The translations under genes and the position numbers were made by a program. A stretch of 64,000 bases of DNA from Escherichia coli (GTDB taxonomy: Bacteria > Pseudomonadota > Gammaproteobacteria > Enterobacterales > Enterobacteriaceae), in assembly GCF_048403405.1 (NCBI RefSeq), contig NZ_CP183129.1; one strand, given 5' to 3'. Positions within the stretch are counted from its first letter, which is position 1; each line of letters begins with the position of its first letter. This document shows, piece after piece, positions 6,591 to 55,444 of this stretch. Below the pieces are notes generated by a model, which made no database searches, was not told where the DNA came from, and saw nothing but the letters and a program-made list of their open reading frames with translations.

Positions 6591-9464
6591 ATGACACAGA
6601 CGTTAAGCCAGCTTGAAAACAGCGGCGCTTTTATTGAACGCCATATCGGACCGGATGCCGCGCAACAGCAAGAAATGCTGAATGCCGTTGGCGCACAATC
6701 GTTAAACGCGCTGACCGGCCAGATTGTGCCGAAAGATATTCAGCTTGCGACCCCGCCGCAGGTTGGCGCACCGGCGACCGAATACGCCGCGCTGGCGGAA
6801 CTCAAGGCTATTGCCAGTCGCAATAAACGCTTCACGTCTTACATCGGCATGGGTTACACCGCCGTGCAGCTACCGCCGGTTATCCTGCGTAACATGCTGG
6901 AAAATCCGGGCTGGTATACCGCGTATACTCCGTATCAACCTGAAGTCTCCCAGGGCCGCCTTGAAGCACTGCTCAACTTCCAGCAGGTAACGCTGGATTT
7001 GACCGGGCTGGATATGGCCTCTGCTTCTCTTCTGGACGAGGCCACCGCTGCCGCCGAAGCAATGGCGATGGCGAAACGCGTCAGCAAACTGAAAAATGCC
7101 AACCGCTTCTTTGTTGCTTCTGACGTCCATCCGCAAACGCTCGATGTGGTCCGTACTCGTGCTGAAACCTTTGGTTTTGAAGTGATTGTCGATGATGCGC
7201 AAAAAGTGCTCGACCACCAGGACGTCTTCGGCGTGCTGTTACAGCAGGTCGGCACTACTGGTGAAATTCACGACTACACCGCGCTTATTAGCGAACTGAA
7301 ATCACGCAAAATTGTGGTCAGTGTCGCCGCCGATATTATGGCGCTGGTGCTGTTAACTGCGCCGGGTAAACAGGGCGCGGATATTGTTTTTGGTTCGGCG
7401 CAACGCTTTGGCGTACCGATGGGTTACGGTGGCCCACACGCGGCATTCTTTGCGGCGAAAGACGAATACAAACGCTCAATGCCGGGCCGTATTATCGGTG
7501 TATCGAAAGATGCAGCTGGCAACACCGCTCTGCGCATGGCGATGCAGACTCGCGAGCAACATATTCGTCGTGAGAAAGCGAACTCCAACATTTGTACTTC
7601 CCAGGTGCTGCTGGCAAACATCGCCAGCCTGTATGCCGTTTATCACGGCCCGGTTGGCCTGAAACGTATCGCTAACCGCATTCACCGTCTGACCGATATC
7701 CTGGCGGCAGGCCTGCAACAAAAAGGTCTGAAGCTGCGCCATGCGCACTATTTCGACACTCTGTGTGTGGAAGTGGCCGACAAGGCGGGCGTACTGGCGC
7801 GTGCCGAAGTGGCTGAAATCAACCTGCGTAGCGATATCCTGAACGCGGTTGGGATCACCCTTGATGAAACCACCACGCGCGAAAACGTGATGCAGCTTTT
7901 CAGCGTACTGCTGGGGGATAACCACGGACTGGACATCGACACGCTGGACAAAGACGTGGCTCACGATAGCCGCTCTATTCAGCCTGCAATGTTGCGCGAC
8001 GACGAAATCCTCACCCATCCGGTGTTTAATCGCTACCACAGCGAAACCGAAATGATGCGCTATATGCACTCGCTGGAGCGTAAAGATCTGGCGCTGAATC
8101 AGGCGATGATCCCGCTGGGTTCCTGCACCATGAAACTGAACGCCGCCGCCGAGATGATCCCCATCACCTGGCCGGAATTTGCCGAACTGCACCCGTTCTG
8201 CCCGCCGGAACAGGCCGAAGGTTATCAGCAGATGATTGCGCAACTGGCTGACTGGCTGGTGAAACTGACCGGTTACGACGCCGTTTGTATGCAGCCGAAC
8301 TCTGGCGCACAGGGCGAATATGCGGGCCTGCTGGCGATTCGTCATTATCATGAAAGCCGCAACGAAGGGCATCGCGATATCTGCCTGATCCCGGCTTCTG
8401 CGCACGGAACTAACCCCGCTTCTGCACATATGGCAGGAATGCAGGTGGTAGTTGTGGCATGTGATAAAAATGGCAACATCGATCTGACTGACCTGCGCGC
8501 GAAAGCGGAACAAGCGGGCGATAATCTCTCCTGCATCATGGTGACTTATCCTTCCACCCACGGCGTGTACGAAGAAACGATCCGTGAAGTGTGTGAAGTC
8601 GTGCATCAGTTCGGCGGTCAGGTTTACCTTGATGGCGCGAACATGAACGCCCAGGTCGGCATCACCTCACCGGGCTTTATTGGCGCGGACGTCTCGCACC
8701 TTAACCTGCATAAAACTTTCTGCATTCCGCACGGTGGCGGCGGCCCAGGTATGGGACCGATCGGCGTGAAAGCGCATCTGGCACCGTTTGTGCCAGGTCA
8801 TAGCGTGGTACAAATTGAAGGCATGTTAACCCGTCAGGGCGCGGTTTCTGCGGCACCGTTCGGTAGCGCATCCATTCTGCCAATCAGCTGGATGTACATC
8901 CGCATGATGGGCGCAGAAGGGCTGAAAAAAGCAAGCCAGGTGGCAATCCTCAACGCCAACTATATTGCCAGCCGCCTGCAGGATGCCTTCCCGGTGCTGT
9001 ATACCGGTCGCGACGGTCGCGTGGCGCACGAATGTATTCTCGATATTCGCCCGCTGAAAGAAGAAACCGGCATCAGCGAACTGGATATTGCCAAGCGTCT
9101 GATCGACTACGGTTTCCACGCGCCGACGATGTCGTTCCCGGTGGCGGGTACGCTGATGGTTGAACCGACTGAATCTGAAAGCAAAGTGGAACTGGATCGC
9201 TTTATCGACGCGATGCTGGCTATCCGCGCAGAAATTGACCAGGTGAAAGCCGGTGTCTGGCCGCTGGAAGATAACCCGCTGGTGAACGCGCCACACATTC
9301 AGAGCGAACTGGTCGCCGAGTGGGCGCATCCGTACAGCCGTGAAGTTGCAGTATTCCCGGCAGGCGTGGCAGACAAATACTGGTCGACAGTGAAACGTCT
9401 GGATGATGTTTACGGCGACCGTAACCTGTTCTGCTCCTGCGTACCGATTAGCGAATACCAGTAA
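6591..9464 (+). CDS. gcvP: Glycine dehydrogenase (decarboxylating), P protein
   Basis: Track ORF 6507..9464 trimmed to the ATG at codon 29 ([22 protein letters not shown]...), giving 957 aa, a PLP-dependent enzyme. Confidence 0.95.
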
Positions 9465-23243: not shown

Positions 23244-23678
23244 CAGTGTTTCTCCTTTCGCCCGCCAGAGTAAAAAGCAACCGTTTACGTTAATGAAACT
23301 GTCTAAACACATGCTCGTGGAGTGCCAGTTTTTGCGAGGAAGGGGAGTTAGAGACAGGAATTGCGGAGGCAATCACATAATCGTGGTTAAACCACGAAAA
23401 TGAGAAGAGAACCTGACAATGGAATTATCTGTAATTTTCTCATATTGATATTTCATTAATCATTCTGGCATGTCGCACTCTCGCATTTAATCGTTTTTAT
23501 CTGGATAGCGCTCTTTTGGTCGGCAATGTTGAAGTAATGAAAGCGGCACAGATTGAGGGGCAATAATTTGAACTCAGTCGCAAAATTATAATTAAATCGG
23601 CCATGCTACCTAATATATGCCCATTTATTGCATCGCGAAATTTGAGAAGACATAACTCATTAAATGAAAGGGATGCAA

Positions 23679-38550: not shown

Positions 38551-38871
38551 AACCCTCTCCTTAGCTTATACAGATATCATTGAGTGACCGGTGTTGAGAA
38601 ATCCGGTGGTTTAGGGGGATAGAGCAACAATCGCACCACTCTTGCCAGGTTTGGCGGGAAATATAAAAAAATGTGAGGCGGCTCGAAACTTAGGGGCTTT
38701 TTGTGAAAGAACTCACAGGTGCCAAATGAGAATTAAAATCACTCCTGAAAATTATTATTGCCAGCCCATTTATCACTTTTTCTCTTTTCTCAAAATCAGT
38801 GATTCCTTATCATTATGATAAAGAGAACTGGAAGGGTTAAATATTTGAACGCAATCGTTTAACTACGTTTT

Positions 38872-44454: not shown

Positions 44455-45666
44455 TTATTCGGTTGCCAGCCAGCTTAACGGGATTGCCGCGTACATCGCG
44501 GCACAGGTCACCAGGTGAGATTTCCAGGTTTTTTCGTTAGGTGCATGCGCTTCAGGTTCTTTACCTGGGCCAAAGCCGATCACCGGAATGCCGTGACGGC
44601 CCATGATAGATACGCCGTTAGTTGAGAAGGTCCACTTATCAACAACCGGCGCTTTGCCAAACAGCCCTTCGTAGGCATTCACCAGTGCTTTAACGGTGAA
44701 GTGATCTTCTTCCACTTTCCAGGTCGGGAAGTAGCATTCGGTTGGGTATACCAGGCCAGTCCAGGACGGACGGTCGTAGTTGTACATAGAAACAACCGCG
44801 TTAGCTTTCTGTACCGCAGGCAGGGCGCGGATTTCATCCAGCGCGCCTTCCCAGGTTTCGCCCCAGGTCAGACGGCGGTCAATAGAGACGGCGCAGCTAT
44901 CTGCTACTGCGCAACGGCTTGGGGATGTGAAGAAGATTTCAGAAACGGTGAGGGTGCCTTTGCCGAGGAATTCGTCATAACCCAGACGTTGGGAGAGTTC
45001 TTGTAATTCGCCAAGAATCGGACCCATTTTGAAAATGGCGTTGTCACCGCGTTCTGGTGCAGAACCGTGGCAGCTAACACCCTGAACATCAATACGAATT
45101 TCCATACGACCGCGCTGACCACGGTATACCTGGCAGTCGGTTGGTTCGGTACTGACCACAAATTCCGGGCGAATGCCGGATTGTTCAATAATGTACTGCC
45201 AGCACAGGCCGTCGCAGTCTTCTTCCTGCACCGTACCGGTAACCAGCAGGGTATATTCATCTTCCAGACCGAGGTCTTTAATGATTTTACCGGCATAAAC
45301 CATAGATGCCATGCCGCCTTCCTGGTCGGAAGTACCGCGACCACCGATCAGCTCATCAGTTTCCATGCCTTCGTACGGATCGAAGTCCCAGTTTTTGATG
45401 TTGCCAATGCCGACGGTATCAATATGAGCGTCCATTGCCACCAGACGCGGGCCGTGGCCGATATAACCGAGAACGTTGCCCATCGGGTCGATTTCAACTT
45501 TATCGAAGCCGACTTTTTCCATCTCTTCTTTAATACGATGTACTACGCGTTTCTCGTCGCAGCTTTCACTGGGAATAGCAACCATGTCGCGCAGGAAGCG
45601 AGTCATATCCGCCTGGTAATCTTTTGCTTTTTCAAGAATCAGTTTGAATGGAATATTCTTAGCCAT
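44455..45666 (-). CDS. ygeY: Peptidase M20 family amidohydrolase (ArgE/DapE/acylase-like)
   Basis: 403 aa, [35 protein letters not shown]... Confidence 0.88.
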
Positions 45667-45723: not shown

Positions 45724-46920
45724 TTAAGGTGCTACAGCGTGTTTGCCTTCCCAGACAACTTCGCGGTAGTGCTTCACGTCGGTGTCGCCTTCAGTGCTGA
45801 TAACCAGCACCACGGCATCTTTGTTCAGCGCCAGTTTTTCCATCAGGCTTTGACGTTGTGGGTGATAATGAACCGCTGCGAGAACGCCCAAACCGACAGC
45901 GCCGGATTCGCCGGAGATGATGCGCGGGTCGTTGCCGTACGGATTACCCAGCACGCGCATACCTAATGCGGCAACGCTGTCCTGGCAGGAGATGAATTGG
46001 GTGGCGCAGTTACGTAGGATTTCCCAGCCCAGCGGGTTAGGTTCGCCACAGGCCAGGCCTGCCATGATGGTGGCCATATCACCGCCAACGTTGACGATGT
46101 CGCCTTTGACGCCAGAGCGATAAATACAGTCAGCTTTGTCAGGTTCAACAATAATGCTGTGCAGATTTTGCGGGCTGTAGACGTCGACCAGATAACCCAG
46201 CACACCACCAGCCATTGCACCGACACCGGCTTGCAGCAGAACGTGCGTCGGGGTTACGCCCATTTCACGCATTTGCTCGACGGCTTCATCTGCCAGTGTT
46301 GCGTAGCCTTGCATGATCCAGGTTGGGATTTTGGTGTAACCTTCCCAGGCGGTATCTTGCACCACTTCCCAGCCGTGCTGCTGCGCGTGTTGCATGGTCA
46401 GGCGAACGGTATCGTCATAGTTCATATCCGTGACGATGCACTCGGCACCGAGGTTCAGAATGGCGTCAACGCGTTCCTGAGCAGAACCTTTCGGCATGTA
46501 AATCACCGCATTCTGTCCGAGTTGCTGTGCTGCCCACGCCACACCGCGCCCGTGGTTGCCGTCGGTGGTGGTCGCGAAGGTCATTTTTTCGCCGATGGCA
46601 TTTTTCAGATGCTCAAATGACAGCGTTTCGATATCAAGATGATATTTTTCACACAATAATTGAGCGATGGCGTACGCACCGCCGAGCATTTTGAAGGCGT
46701 TCAGACCGAATCGTTTTGATTCGTCTTTGACGAGAATTTTCTTCACACCAAAAAGGTTTGCGAGATCGTCCAGCGCACAAAGCGGTGTTGGGCGATAACC
46801 AGCAATTTTCTGATGGAACTGGCGCGCCAGTTTGGCCTGGCTTTGCGAAAAGAGCGGTGATGTTTCGCCGTTGAAAAATTTGTTATCGGCGATATCAATC
46901 TTCAATGAGAAAACGGACAT
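45724..46920 (-). CDS. dpaL: Diaminopropionate ammonia-lyase (PLP-dependent, fold type II)
   Basis: 398 aa; also known as ygeX. Confidence 0.88.
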   Translation of the reverse strand: MSVFSLKIDIADNKFFNGETSPLFSQSQAKLARQFHQKIAGYRPTPLCALDDLANLFGVKKILVKDESKRFGLNAFKMLGGAYAIAQLLCEKYHLDIETLSFEHLKNAIGEKMTFATTTDGNHGRGVAWAAQQLGQNAVIYMPKGSAQERVDAILNLGAECIVTDMNYDDTVRLTMQHAQQHGWEVVQDTAWEGYTKIPTWIMQGYATLADEAVEQMREMGVTPTHVLLQAGVGAMAGGVLGYLVDVYSPQNLHSIIVEPDKADCIYRSGVKGDIVNVGGDMATIMAGLACGEPNPLGWEILRNCATQFISCQDSVAALGMRVLGNPYGNDPRIISGESGAVGLGVLAAVHYHPQRQSLMEKLALNKDAVVLVISTEGDTDVKHYREVVWEGKHAVAP

Positions 46921-48257: not shown

Positions 48258-48276
48258 TAACAATAAGTGTGCCAGA
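48258..48276 (-). promoter_or_regulatory. Candidate sigma54 (-24/-12) promoter reading toward ygeW
   Basis: Minus strand reads CTGGCACACTTATTGTT: the -24 TGGCAC element and the correct spacing to a -12 TTGT (consensus TTGC), about 90 nt upstream of the ygeW start and next to the divergent sigma54 activator gene ygeV. One mismatch in the -12 GC. Confidence 0.4.
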
Positions 48277-48643
48277 ATTATCCACGGGGCTGCAAAAGAC
48301 TAATTTGACGGATAATGTGTGGGGTTGATCACAAATTGATGCCAGCTTCCGGTTGTTTGTAAAATACGAAAACGATTGGCTTTTCTTATCGCGTTATTTA
48401 TTTACTGCTAAGTATCAGAAATAAGATAAAGGGACAGGCTATCTCTCTTCAGTTTGATAAACTCACCGCCGTAATTCTCATATTGATATAGAAATGTGAT
48501 ATCTCTTCCATAATTTCATTAGAAAGTGATAAAAATCTTATGTTTTTATCAAAGCCAATTTCGCCTGAGTTAATATCATCATGATCTGTGAACCATCAAC
48601 GTCTTCAATGATCGACTTTTAAGTAAGTCTGGAAGGTAAAGCT

Positions 48644-50422
48644 ATGGAGCTTGCTACTACGCAGTCAGTATTGATGCAAATTCAACCGACAATTCAGCGT
48701 TTTGCCAGAATGCTTGCCAGCGTTTTGCAGCTTGAGGTTGAGATCGTTGATGAAAACTTGTGTCGCGTCGCCGGAACGGGCGCGTATGGGAAGTTTCTTG
48801 GTCGCCAGTTGAGCGGCAACTCACGCCTGCTCCGCCACGTCCTGGAAACGAAAACTGAAAAAGTTGTGACACAGTCTCGCTTCGATCCCCTTTGTGAAGG
48901 TTGCGATAGTAAAGAAAATTGCCGCGAAAAAGCATTTCTGGGTACGCCTGTCATTTTACAGGATCGTTGTGTTGGGGTGATAAGTTTGATTGCCGTTACC
49001 CACGAGCAACAAGAGCATATCAGTGATAATTTACGCGAATTTTCTGATTATGTTCGCCATATATCCACCATTTTTGTTTCGAAACTTCTGGAGGATCAGG
49101 GGCCAGGAGATAACATCAGTAAAATATTCGCGACCATGATCGATAATATGGATCAGGGCGTATTAGTTGTTGATGATGAAAGTCGGGTTCAGTTTGTTAA
49201 TCAGACTGCCTTAAAAACACTTGGTGTTGTACAAAATAATATTATTGGGAAACCTATCCGTTTCAGACCATTAACATTTGAGAGTAATTTTACCCATGGA
49301 CATATGCAGCATATTGTTTCGTGGGACGATAAAAGTGAATTAATCATTGGTCAATTGCATAACATTCAGGGCCGACAATTATTTTTAATGGCGTTTCACC
49401 AATCGCATACCAGTTTTTCTGTAGCAAATGCACCTGATGAACCGCATATTGAACAATTGGTTGGCGAGTGCCGTGTTATGCGGCAATTAAAACGACTCAT
49501 TAGCCGTATTGCACCCAGCCCATCCAGCGTTATGGTGGTTGGTGAAAGCGGCACGGGTAAAGAAGTTGTCGCCCGTGCAATCCATAAGTTGAGCGGAAGA
49601 CGGAATAAACCCTTTATTGCTATCAACTGTGCCGCGATTCCGGAGCAGCTTCTGGAGAGCGAACTGTTCGGTTATGTTAAAGGCGCATTTACTGGCGCTT
49701 CTGCCAACGGTAAAACAGGGTTGATTCAGGCGGCGAATACGGGCACGCTGTTTCTCGATGAAATAGGTGATATGCCATTAATGTTGCAGGCTAAATTACT
49801 GCGCGCTATTGAGGCACGTGAAATTCTGCCGATTGGTGCCAGTAGCCCAATACAAGTCGACATTCGCATCATTTCTGCAACTAACCAGAATTTGGCCCAG
49901 TTCATTGCCGAAGGTAAATTCCGCGAAGATCTCTTCTACCGACTTAATGTTATCCCGATAACTCTGCCACCGCTGCGTGAACGTCAGGAAGATATTGAAC
50001 TACTGGTGCATTACTTTTTACATCTGCATACCCGTCGTCTGGGATCGGTTTATCCGGGCATTGCTCCCGATGTCGTCGAAATATTGCGTAAGCATCGTTG
50101 GCCCGGAAACCTGCGCGAGTTAAGCAATTTGATGGAATATCTGGTTAACGTGGTTCCTTCAGGTGAAGTTATCGACAGCACGCTATTGCCGCCAAATCTG
50201 CTGAATAATGGCACAACGGAGCAAAGTGATGTAACAGAGGTCAACGAGGCGCACCTGGCACTCGATGATGCGGGCGGCACGGCGCTGGAGGAGATGGAAA
50301 AGCAAATGATCCGCGAGGCGCTTTCACGTCATAACAGCAAGAAGCAAGTTGCTGATGAACTGGGCATCGGCATTGCTACGCTCTACCGCAAGATTAAAAA
50401 ATATGAGTTGTTAAACACATAA
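48644..50422 (+). CDS. ygeV: Sigma54-dependent transcriptional activator (NtrC/bEBP family) with N-terminal sensory domains
   Basis: 592 aa; AAA+ Walker A (VVGESGTGKEVVARAIH), the GAFTGA sigma54-contact motif and a C-terminal HTH. Confidence 0.9.
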   Translation: MELATTQSVLMQIQPTIQRFARMLASVLQLEVEIVDENLCRVAGTGAYGKFLGRQLSGNSRLLRHVLETKTEKVVTQSRFDPLCEGCDSKENCREKAFLGTPVILQDRCVGVISLIAVTHEQQEHISDNLREFSDYVRHISTIFVSKLLEDQGPGDNISKIFATMIDNMDQGVLVVDDESRVQFVNQTALKTLGVVQNNIIGKPIRFRPLTFESNFTHGHMQHIVSWDDKSELIIGQLHNIQGRQLFLMAFHQSHTSFSVANAPDEPHIEQLVGECRVMRQLKRLISRIAPSPSSVMVVGESGTGKEVVARAIHKLSGRRNKPFIAINCAAIPEQLLESELFGYVKGAFTGASANGKTGLIQAANTGTLFLDEIGDMPLMLQAKLLRAIEAREILPIGASSPIQVDIRIISATNQNLAQFIAEGKFREDLFYRLNVIPITLPPLRERQEDIELLVHYFLHLHTRRLGSVYPGIAPDVVEILRKHRWPGNLRELSNLMEYLVNVVPSGEVIDSTLLPPNLLNNGTTEQSDVTEVNEAHLALDDAGGTALEEMEKQMIREALSRHNSKKQVADELGIGIATLYRKIKKYELLNT

Positions 50423-54085: not shown

Positions 54086-54539
54086 GCAAGATTCACCCGT
54101 AGCGGTTGCTTCCCGCGCTTCCATAGAAATCCCCTCGATTTGAACATTTGGTTCTTATGGCAAAGATTTAGTCTAAGCAGGCAAGATTTACGCCAGAAAC
54201 GACGATAAGCGTTAGGGGAGGAAGGAAGTGTGATGACGTTAAAAAAACACAGATATGATACGAAACAGGACTCTGAATAGGGGCAGTGATACGTATCAAT
54301 ATGAGTGGCGATAAAATCAATGTGATAAATCAGGATTATTACGCATCAGGATGGGAAATAGGGTAAAAAAGTCAGGAAATTCGATACCTCTGCAGCGAAT
54401 ATTTTGCTGATGATACTTCCCTTTGCCAAATGAAATTAACCTCTTTCTCTATTACCGCGTTTTTCCAGAAGCAAGAGATTGGGTATCCAGAGGCTGGCTG
54501 CTATGATATGGCGTCTTGTTTTTTAAGCGAGGAAAGATT

Positions 54540-55370: not shown

Positions 55371-55444
55371 GCGGGCGTAGTTCAATGGTAGAACGAGAGC
55401 TTCCCAAGCTCTATACGAGGGTTCGATTCCCTTCGCCCGCTCCA
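55371..55444 (+). tRNA. glyU: tRNA-Gly (anticodon CCC)
   Basis: GCGGGCGTAGTTCAATGGTAGAACGAGAGCTTCCCAAGCTCTATACGAGGGTTCGATTCCCTTCGCCCGCTCCA: cloverleaf with anticodon loop CTTCCCAAG, T-arm GGTTCGATTCC and a CCA end. Confidence 0.95.

Follow-up and report, generated by a model that had tools for sequence, protein, structure and literature searches.

YgeV of Escherichia coli as a probable one-component sigma-54 activator of anaerobic urate genes, with a GAF-PAS sensor and a candidate enhancer dyad

Which signal is read by the YgeV protein, and through which DNA sites does this regulator act on the genes that surround it? The question is raised by a stretch of 64,000 nucleotides from Escherichia coli (contig NZ_CP183129.1 of the RefSeq assembly GCF_048403405.1, hereafter the window), in which ygeV lies within a well-known purine/urate region. 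The gene, the sigma-54 class of its product, its targets (xdhA, ygeW, ygfK and ygfT) and the link to urate are already published. The analysis reported here points, with good confidence, to a one-component sigma-54 enhancer-binding protein acting on anaerobic urate/purine genes, in which a GAF domain bearing a cysteine triad is followed by a PAS domain, an AAA+ domain and a helix-turn-helix (HTH) domain. The domain assignment and the absence of a receiver domain are practically certain, and activation of the surrounding purine/urate gene cluster by YgeV is highly probable. Urate or a close catabolite is most likely the signal, being the best-supported candidate.

YgeV combines the features that define an enhancer-binding protein, namely an AAA+ domain with Walker A and B motifs, a GAFTGA loop and a C-terminal HTH of the Fis type. 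The Sigma54_activat family (PF00158) is matched at residues 272-439 with an E value of 2.1e-70, and AAA_lid_14 at residues 445-528 with an E value of 7.5e-21. Both the Walker A motif (GESGTGKE at residue 300) and the Walker B motif (LFLDE at residue 369) are intact, and the GAFTGA loop is exact at residues 347-352 (nucleotides 49682-49699). A first-pass annotation, made from the DNA letters alone, had described a sigma-54 activator carrying an N-terminal sensory region of about 280 residues without an obvious receiver. A long region does precede the AAA+ core, but its length comes to about 270 residues, the core starting at residue 272. The absence of a receiver is borne out by Pfam, by the NCBIfam models and by the predicted fold, all of which agree. 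Response_reg (PF00072) is missing from the best 25 of the 29 Pfam matches obtained for YgeV at E <= 10. Those NCBIfam models that describe activators with a receiver (NtrC, AtoC, ZraR, GlrR, LuxO and others) align only from model position ~126-140, past their receivers, and the secondary structure predicted for residues 1-275 differs from the (beta-alpha)5 arrangement of a receiver.

The GAF/PAS-like modules that had been proposed in place of a receiver were recovered by the domain search, by family-profile matches and by a predicted fold resembling that of DhaR(N), the GAF-PAS pair of the E. coli DhaR protein. For the second domain, PAS_8 matches residues 162-201 at 2.3e-6, and the Pfam PAS family is matched at 2.3e-4. 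The family profile matches the cytoplasmic PAS domains of WalK (2.3e-9) and DhaR (1.4e-8), as well as those of DcuS and CitA, and the model contains the five strands of a PAS sheet (172-176, 181-185, 220-227, 230-241 and 246-253). The first domain is only faintly detected as GAF in Pfam (E 0.03, with GAF_2 at E 0.34); the family profile nevertheless matches the GAF domain of Nlh1 at 1.3e-5, PF13185 is annotated on some YgeV homologues, and the predicted structure displays the antiparallel sheet backed by helices that characterizes the GAF fold. The AlphaFold2 model of the N-terminal region has a mean pLDDT (predicted local distance difference test) of 86 and a pTM (predicted template modelling score) of 0.70. 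Disorder is restricted to residues 257-275, and a short disordered linker joins the PAS domain to the AAA+ domain. When the whole N-terminal model was submitted to Foldseek, the solved-structure matches were headed by two-domain sensor modules.

An exhaustive search with residues 1-270 retrieved 858 cluster representatives at E <= 1e-3, and most of the 150 that were listed are activators of 570-600 amino acids with the same organization. An alignment of 51 N-terminal regions was made. Identity to YgeV across the homologues is highest in the HTH domain (49%) and amounts to 30% in the GAF domain and 16% in the PAS domain. Besides the cysteine triad, the near-invariant positions of the sensor region are D36, R41, A43-G44-T45-G46, P102 and G111. 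Since conservation in the GAF domain is about double that in the PAS domain, and since the PAS domain looks like the cytoplasmic, transmitter-type PAS domains found in WalK, DcuS and CitA, the comparison of sequences designates the GAF domain as probably the primary sensor. In a very long protein of 1566 amino acids (P0155), seven separate stretches match the YgeV N-terminal query; this protein lacks the CX2CX5C motif and may be a multi-GAF/PAS sensor.

The genes that YgeV probably controls can be read from the promoters of the window (Table 1). The weakly matching site in front of ygfT differs by one base from TATGCCCGTTTATTGCA, the site detected in K-12 by sigma-54 chromatin immunoprecipitation sequencing (ChIP-seq) and assigned to ygfT (PMC4591121). 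A further sequence with a good -24 element and GC at -12 (TGGCACTCCACGAGCA, 23312-23327, minus strand) is found ~70 bp upstream of uacT, which encodes the urate transporter and shares with ygfT the intergenic dyad at 23437-23451. The uacT gene belongs to the YgeV iModulon, but this site is absent from the sigma-54 ChIP-seq list that was consulted (PMC4591121).

A dyad with the core T(A/C)TCA-N3-TGA(T/G)A is common to the regions located 100-200 bp upstream of all four sigma-54 promoters. The 12-mer TATCAATATGAG occurs as four exact copies in the 64 kb, against ~0.008 expected (128,000 positions / 4^12). Three of these are found upstream of the ygeW, xdhA and ygfT promoters, at a distance of 100-200 bp, and the equivalent place at ygfK is taken by the perfect palindrome. 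When up to two mismatches were tolerated, 12 occurrences of the 12-mer were counted; 100 shuffles averaged 4.9, and none of them reached this number. With the same tolerance, 6 of the 14 window positions of the 15-bp dyad are situated in the 1.6 kb of DNA that lie upstream of these four promoters. The TGT-N10-12-ACA type of site used by NifA and FhlA was also considered as a YgeV site and rejected, its sole matches being the CRP-like sites. Two more copies of the dyad are present inside genes of the ygeWXY operon, TATCAATATGAGC at 45417-45429 (plus strand) in ygeY and the palindromic TATCAAGATGATA at 46632-46644 in dpaL/ygeX; these could be internal enhancers or chance occurrences.

The same arrangement can be followed into distant species, in which YgeV orthologues at 27-40% identity adjoin homologues of ygeW/X/Y, hyuA, xdh and ygfK. 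At the locus of the 40%-identical orthologue (L003), which comprises homologues of ygeW/X/Y, hyuA, yqeA, xdh, ygfK and ygfT, the ygeW promoter is conserved as TGGCACGAATGTTGTT and a second sigma-54 promoter, CTGGCACAGCCTTTGCT, precedes xdh, with a dyad upstream of each. The 35%-identical orthologue (L004) is surrounded by the same gene set, and a dyad, TTATCAGATTGATAG, stands ~390 bp before its ygfK homologue. The orthologues at 32% (L005) and 27% (L007) identity neighbor ygeX/ygeY-like operons, and in both cases tandem dyad triplets are found upstream of textbook sigma-54 promoters: three TTATCA-N3-TGATAA (2052-2143), 50-140 bp before the perfect TGGCACCGTAATTGCA, in L005, and three TTCTCA-N3-TGAGAA (about 8900-8990) before TTGGCACGCAGTTTGCT in L007. 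The E. coli dyads resemble hybrids of these two types of half-site. Because the dyad is shared by four promoters and recurs at distant orthologue loci, and because the conservation of the HTH domain fits a conserved site, the T(A/C)TCA-N3-TGA(T/G)A dyad is likely to be the YgeV binding site, a prediction made from patterns in the DNA.

CRP-like sites are interposed between dyad and promoter at ygeW and ygfK. They fit the Crp-binding site stated for the ygeV-ygeW intergenic region (PMC12507026) as well as the reported nutrient dependence of urate use. Their position suggests that catabolite control may be superimposed on sigma-54 activation at ygfK and ygeW.

Table 1. Position of ygeV, of its domains and of the predicted regulatory sites in the window
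Feature	Position	Strand	Basis or context
ygeV coding sequence (592 aa + stop)	48644..50422	+	Open reading frame list and translation; matches the RefSeq ygeV annotation
GAF domain, residues about 8-151	48665..49096	+	
Cysteine triad CEGCDSKENC, CX2CX5C (C84, C87, C93)	48893..48922	+	Loop between GAF strands 73-75 and 97-105; translation checked
PAS domain, residues about 157-255	49112..49408	+	Pfam, profile matches, five-stranded sheet in model
Sigma-54 interaction AAA+ domain and lid, residues 272-528	49457..50227	+	Pfam, motifs
Fis-type HTH, residues 548-587	50285..50404	+	Pfam HTH_8, 3e-13
Sigma-54 promoter of ygeW(XY...), TGGCACACTTATTGTT	48259..48274	-	Pattern scans; K-12 ChIP-seq site (PMC4591121)
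Sigma-54 promoter of xdhABC, TGGCGTAAATCTTGCC	54180..54195	-	Scans; K-12 ChIP-seq site (PMC4591121)
Sigma-54 promoter of ygfK-ssnA-ygfM-xdhD, TGGTGCGATTGTTGCT	38623..38638	-	Scans; K-12 ChIP-seq site (PMC4591121)
Sigma-54 promoter of ygfT(S), ATGCCCATTTATTGCA, weak match	23617..23632	+	Scan; K-12 counterpart assigned to ygfT
Candidate dyad ATATCAATATGAGAA	48475..48489	-	~200 bp upstream of ygeW promoter; weaker copy at 48446-48460
Candidate dyad GTATCAATATGAGTG	54293..54307	+	~100 bp upstream of xdhA promoter; weaker copy at 54314-54328
Candidate dyad TTATCATTATGATAA, perfect palindrome	38807..38821	+	~170 bp upstream of ygfK promoter
Candidate dyad ATATCAATATGAGAA, uacT-ygfT intergenic	23437..23451	-	~170 bp upstream of ygfT promoter
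CRP-like site TGTGGGGTTGATCACA, 1 mismatch	48318..48333	+	Between dyad and ygeW sigma-54 promoter
Perfect CRP consensus TGTGAAAGAACTCACA	38702..38717	+	Between dyad and ygfK sigma-54 promoter

As to the signal, the first-pass annotation had suggested the direct sensing of a purine catabolite. The purine part of this proposal fits the conserved urate-gene context and the published induction by urate; the direct character of the sensing stays at the level of inference. In strain MG1655, ygfK and ygfT show strong induction by uric acid, as do the homologous clusters of three gut anaerobes. According to papers that cite Iwadate & Kato (2019), ygeV takes part in the anaerobic, formate-dependent use of urate and is reportedly needed for urate use, and the expression of ygfT is lower in a ygeV mutant. 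Direct binding of urate or of one of its catabolites to YgeV is put forward here tentatively, as a possibility somewhat short of even.

A mechanism compatible with these data can be proposed. YgeV dimers would bind the dyads through their HTH domains, and the GAF-PAS module would repress the assembly or the ATPase activity of the AAA+ domain until the signal is perceived, by analogy with NorR, Nlh and the XylR-type activators. The signal, for which urate or a close catabolite is the likeliest identity, would be sensed probably by the GAF domain. The resulting hexamer would then hydrolyse ATP, remodel the sigma-54 holoenzyme and open the four promoters of the anaerobic urate/purine genes, two of which might be co-regulated or modulated by CRP.

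Several observations weigh against this scheme. On the DNA side, the -24 element of the ygfT promoter is poor, the xdhA dyad departs by three mismatches from the ideal 15-mer, and the dyads in ygeY and dpaL are followed by no convincing sigma-54 promoter. On the signal side, an iModulon study detected activity chiefly in baeR/cpxR knockouts exposed to ethanol stress and suggested that ethanol is the signal, while a mBio 2022 paper (PMC9426417) links YgeV to indole and to LEE (locus of enterocyte effacement) virulence genes, not to purines. On the structural side, the best two-domain match, DhaR, senses partner proteins and not a small molecule.

The most distinctive element of the sensor is the cysteine triad, and the rival explanation that survives best is built upon it. 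In an alignment of YgeV with 84 homologues, C84, C87 and C93 are each kept in 84 of the 85 full-length sequences (~99%), and 76 of these sequences have the exact CX2CX5C spacing. The sole sequence without the triad has lost its three cysteines together. No fourth conserved cysteine was found outside the AAA+ domain in this alignment, and the only conserved acidic candidates in the sensor region are D36 and E95. The triad sits in a connection of 21 residues that has almost no regular secondary structure and is modelled with high confidence (mean pLDDT of 94 over residues 81-90 and of 97 over residues 91-100). In GAF domains, a region like this connection covers the ligand pocket. The triad has the spacing of the first three cluster cysteines of FNR (Cys20-X2-Cys23-X5-Cys29), and Wbl proteins contain a CX2CX5C part with the same spacing. 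The exceptional sequence, P0192 (605 amino acids), is the only full-length member seen to be devoid of all three cysteines; DPTFDPSTLRGETQEEAE replaces the loop, which makes this protein a naturally occurring control for what the triad does.

Judged from its sequence, the triad may be a metal or iron-sulfur (Fe-S) site. According to the rival explanation, the GAF domain would hold a metal centre, for instance an oxygen- or redox-sensitive Fe-S cluster on C84, C87 and C93. The activity of YgeV would then be confined to anaerobic or reducing conditions, and the purine signal, if detected at all, would be detected independently. Conservation of the triad and its concerted loss, the confidently modelled loop and the spacing common to FNR and Wbl all speak for it, as does the fact that the regulated pathway runs only anaerobically. 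A precedent is offered by VnfA of Azotobacter, a sigma-54 activator whose N-terminal GAF domain, like that of YgeV, contains conserved cysteines. VnfA requires these cysteines for its activity, and they reportedly bind an [Fe3-S4] cluster. The VnfA cysteines are located elsewhere, at the extreme N-terminus, whereas the YgeV triad belongs to an internal loop of the GAF domain. Taken as a whole, this explanation is considered rather unlikely. The narrower proposal that the GAF domain of YgeV and of its urate-cluster relatives carries a Cys3-ligated metal centre, most interestingly a labile Fe-S cluster of the FNR kind, is speculative and given a still slightly lower chance. No description of the GAF cysteine triad or of the enhancer dyad was found in the open-access papers that were searched, which does not prove their novelty.

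A second rival explanation holds that the sensor reads the state of the pathway through a partner protein instead of a small molecule, as DhaR does with DhaK and DhaL. DhaR, the regulator of dhaKLM in E. coli, has the same domain order as YgeV, GAF-PAS-AAA+-HTH. DhaR(N) is the second Foldseek match to the N-terminal model (4e-10) and, with the entries 4lrx, 4lry and 4lrz, the best solved crystal structure. The DhaR family model (NF008485) aligns with YgeV from the GAF domain to the HTH domain (residues 97 to 589, 231.7 bits), and the N-terminal region alone is matched at 1.7e-7. The score is nevertheless far under the cut-off of 551, so that YgeV is not an equivalog, and the identity to DhaR(N) is 14%. 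Moreover, a small molecule is the ligand of the majority of activators of the GAF or PAS type, and no protein stands out as a candidate partner. The promoter on which DhaR acts is of the sigma-70 type, and DhaR is controlled through the binding of DhaK and DhaL; YgeV, in contrast to DhaR, has an intact GAFTGA loop and is surrounded by sigma-54 promoters. The cysteine triad was not noticed in DhaR, although no inspection of the DhaR sequence was aimed at it. Sensing through a partner protein is regarded as improbable.

Equally improbable is the view that YgeV is mainly an indole sensor (IsrR), the N-terminal region of which would bind endogenous indole and be inactivated by it, the main targets being virulence genes. 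Indole does strongly induce ygeV, and an isrR mutant shows lower LEE expression, with an attenuated phenotype in Citrobacter rodentium (PMC9426417). Indole and purines are also both bicyclic heteroaromatic compounds, and a single pocket might accommodate the two. The same paper, however, contains no binding data and calls direct regulation an open question (PMC9426417), and the neighborhood, the sigma-54 sites and the dyads all indicate the purine cluster, including in distant species that lack the LEE.

The weakest alternative makes YgeV an orphan NtrC-type response regulator phosphorylated by a kinase encoded elsewhere, as predicted in the indole paper, which renames the protein IsrR, calls it an "orphan" sigma-54 response regulator throughout and speculates on cross-talk with CpxA, NtrBC and QseEF (PMC9426417). 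The domain content already refutes this alternative, which has practically no chance of being correct: no Response_reg match stands among the best 25 of the 29 Pfam matches at E <= 10, the receiver-type models align only beyond their receiver segment, the N-terminal region has a GAF and PAS fold, and the annotation shows no histidine kinase gene up to 14 kb away in either direction from ygeV. One database fragment does have a receiver match in Pfam. This fragment, P0009 (a contig of 865 bp in the European Nucleotide Archive), was rejected as proof of a receiver in the family, since it is a chimera joining YgeV residues 1-178 to a foreign receiver carrying PF00072. Such a chimeric metagenome assembly could mislead automated domain statistics. 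The "orphan response regulator" label finds no support in the domain content of the protein and is corrected here. As YgeV has no receiver domain, searches for a cognate kinase (CpxA, NtrB or QseE) are probably misdirected.

YgeV, taken as a one-component activator, can also be compared with other known systems. Relative to the GAF-containing sigma-54 activators NifA, Nlh1 and Nlh2 of Aquifex, NorR and FhlA, YgeV has an additional PAS domain that separates GAF from AAA+, together with the CX2CX5C loop, and its candidate enhancer is a TATCA-N3-TGATA dyad, whereas theirs is of the TGT-N10-ACA type. TyrR (ACT-PAS-AAA+-HTH) is aligned, in its PAS-AAA+-HTH part, over residues 157-589 of YgeV (profile positions 77-512) with 236.9 bits, under the cut-off of 576. 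It differs in its first domain, which is ACT where that of YgeV is GAF, and it is sigma-70 dependent. The best NCBIfam score over the AAA+ and HTH domains is that of PrdR from Clostridioides (NF041552), a sigma-54 activator which, like YgeV, serves an anaerobic catabolic pathway; at 386.8 bits it falls under the cut-off of 795 and YgeV is not its equivalog. The possibility that PrdR shares the GAF-Cys domain was discarded because the YgeV N-terminal region, taken alone, is matched only at its PAS segment (residues 156-206, 18.5 bits).

The gene itself is a single open reading frame of 592 codons from ATG to stop, with the Shine-Dalgarno sequence GGAAGG 8 nucleotides 5' of the start. The ygeV region is matched in 5282 of 5426 complete E. 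coli genomes (~97%), with a query coverage of at least 80% in 5173 of them, and several E. coli chromosomes are 100% identical to the ygeV DNA and the surrounding 2.3 kb. In the matched E. coli genomes, the gene is labelled ygeV, "sigma-54 interaction domain-containing protein". A pattern scan detected no sigma-54-like site 5' of ygeV itself, and a sigma-70 scan of its upstream region gave results at chance level only, hence no promoter is proposed. On one side, ygeV is flanked by the divergent genes ygeW, dpaL (ygeX), ygeY, hyuA and arcC (yqeA) and, on the other, by xdhCBA. Farther out in the window come yqeB/yqeC, mocA, ygfK-ssnA-ygfM-xdhD, xanQ, guaD, ghxQ, ygfS/ygfT and uacT. An Rfam scan of the window left the intergenic regions empty, its sole match being one tRNA. 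A tRNA-Gly gene is found at 55371-55441 and may be the boundary of the ETT2 type III secretion island, the genes of which follow at ~57.8-64 kb (homologues of eivF, sctC, a gatekeeper gene, sctV and sctN), along with a toxin gene of the GhoT/OrtT family.

The identification of ygeV adds little by itself, since the literature already covers its dependence on sigma-54, the promoters that it targets and the part it plays in the use of urate. What is gained is a place to look for the signal of YgeV, namely a GAF domain with an invariant cysteine triad, and a candidate dyad with a set of sites that are now concrete. The anaerobic route of uric acid degradation in gut bacteria is relevant to gout, and the engineering of this route in a probiotic E. 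coli replaces the native ygeV-ygeW control region (PMC12507026); knowledge of the native switch would be of practical value for such work. Should the Cys3-ligated metal centre exist, one protein would combine the information "anaerobic or reduced" with the information "urate present", YgeV would license the uricolytic pathway of gut bacteria, which depends on selenium and molybdenum, and a new class of cofactor-bearing GAF sensor would be recognized among the enhancer-binding proteins.

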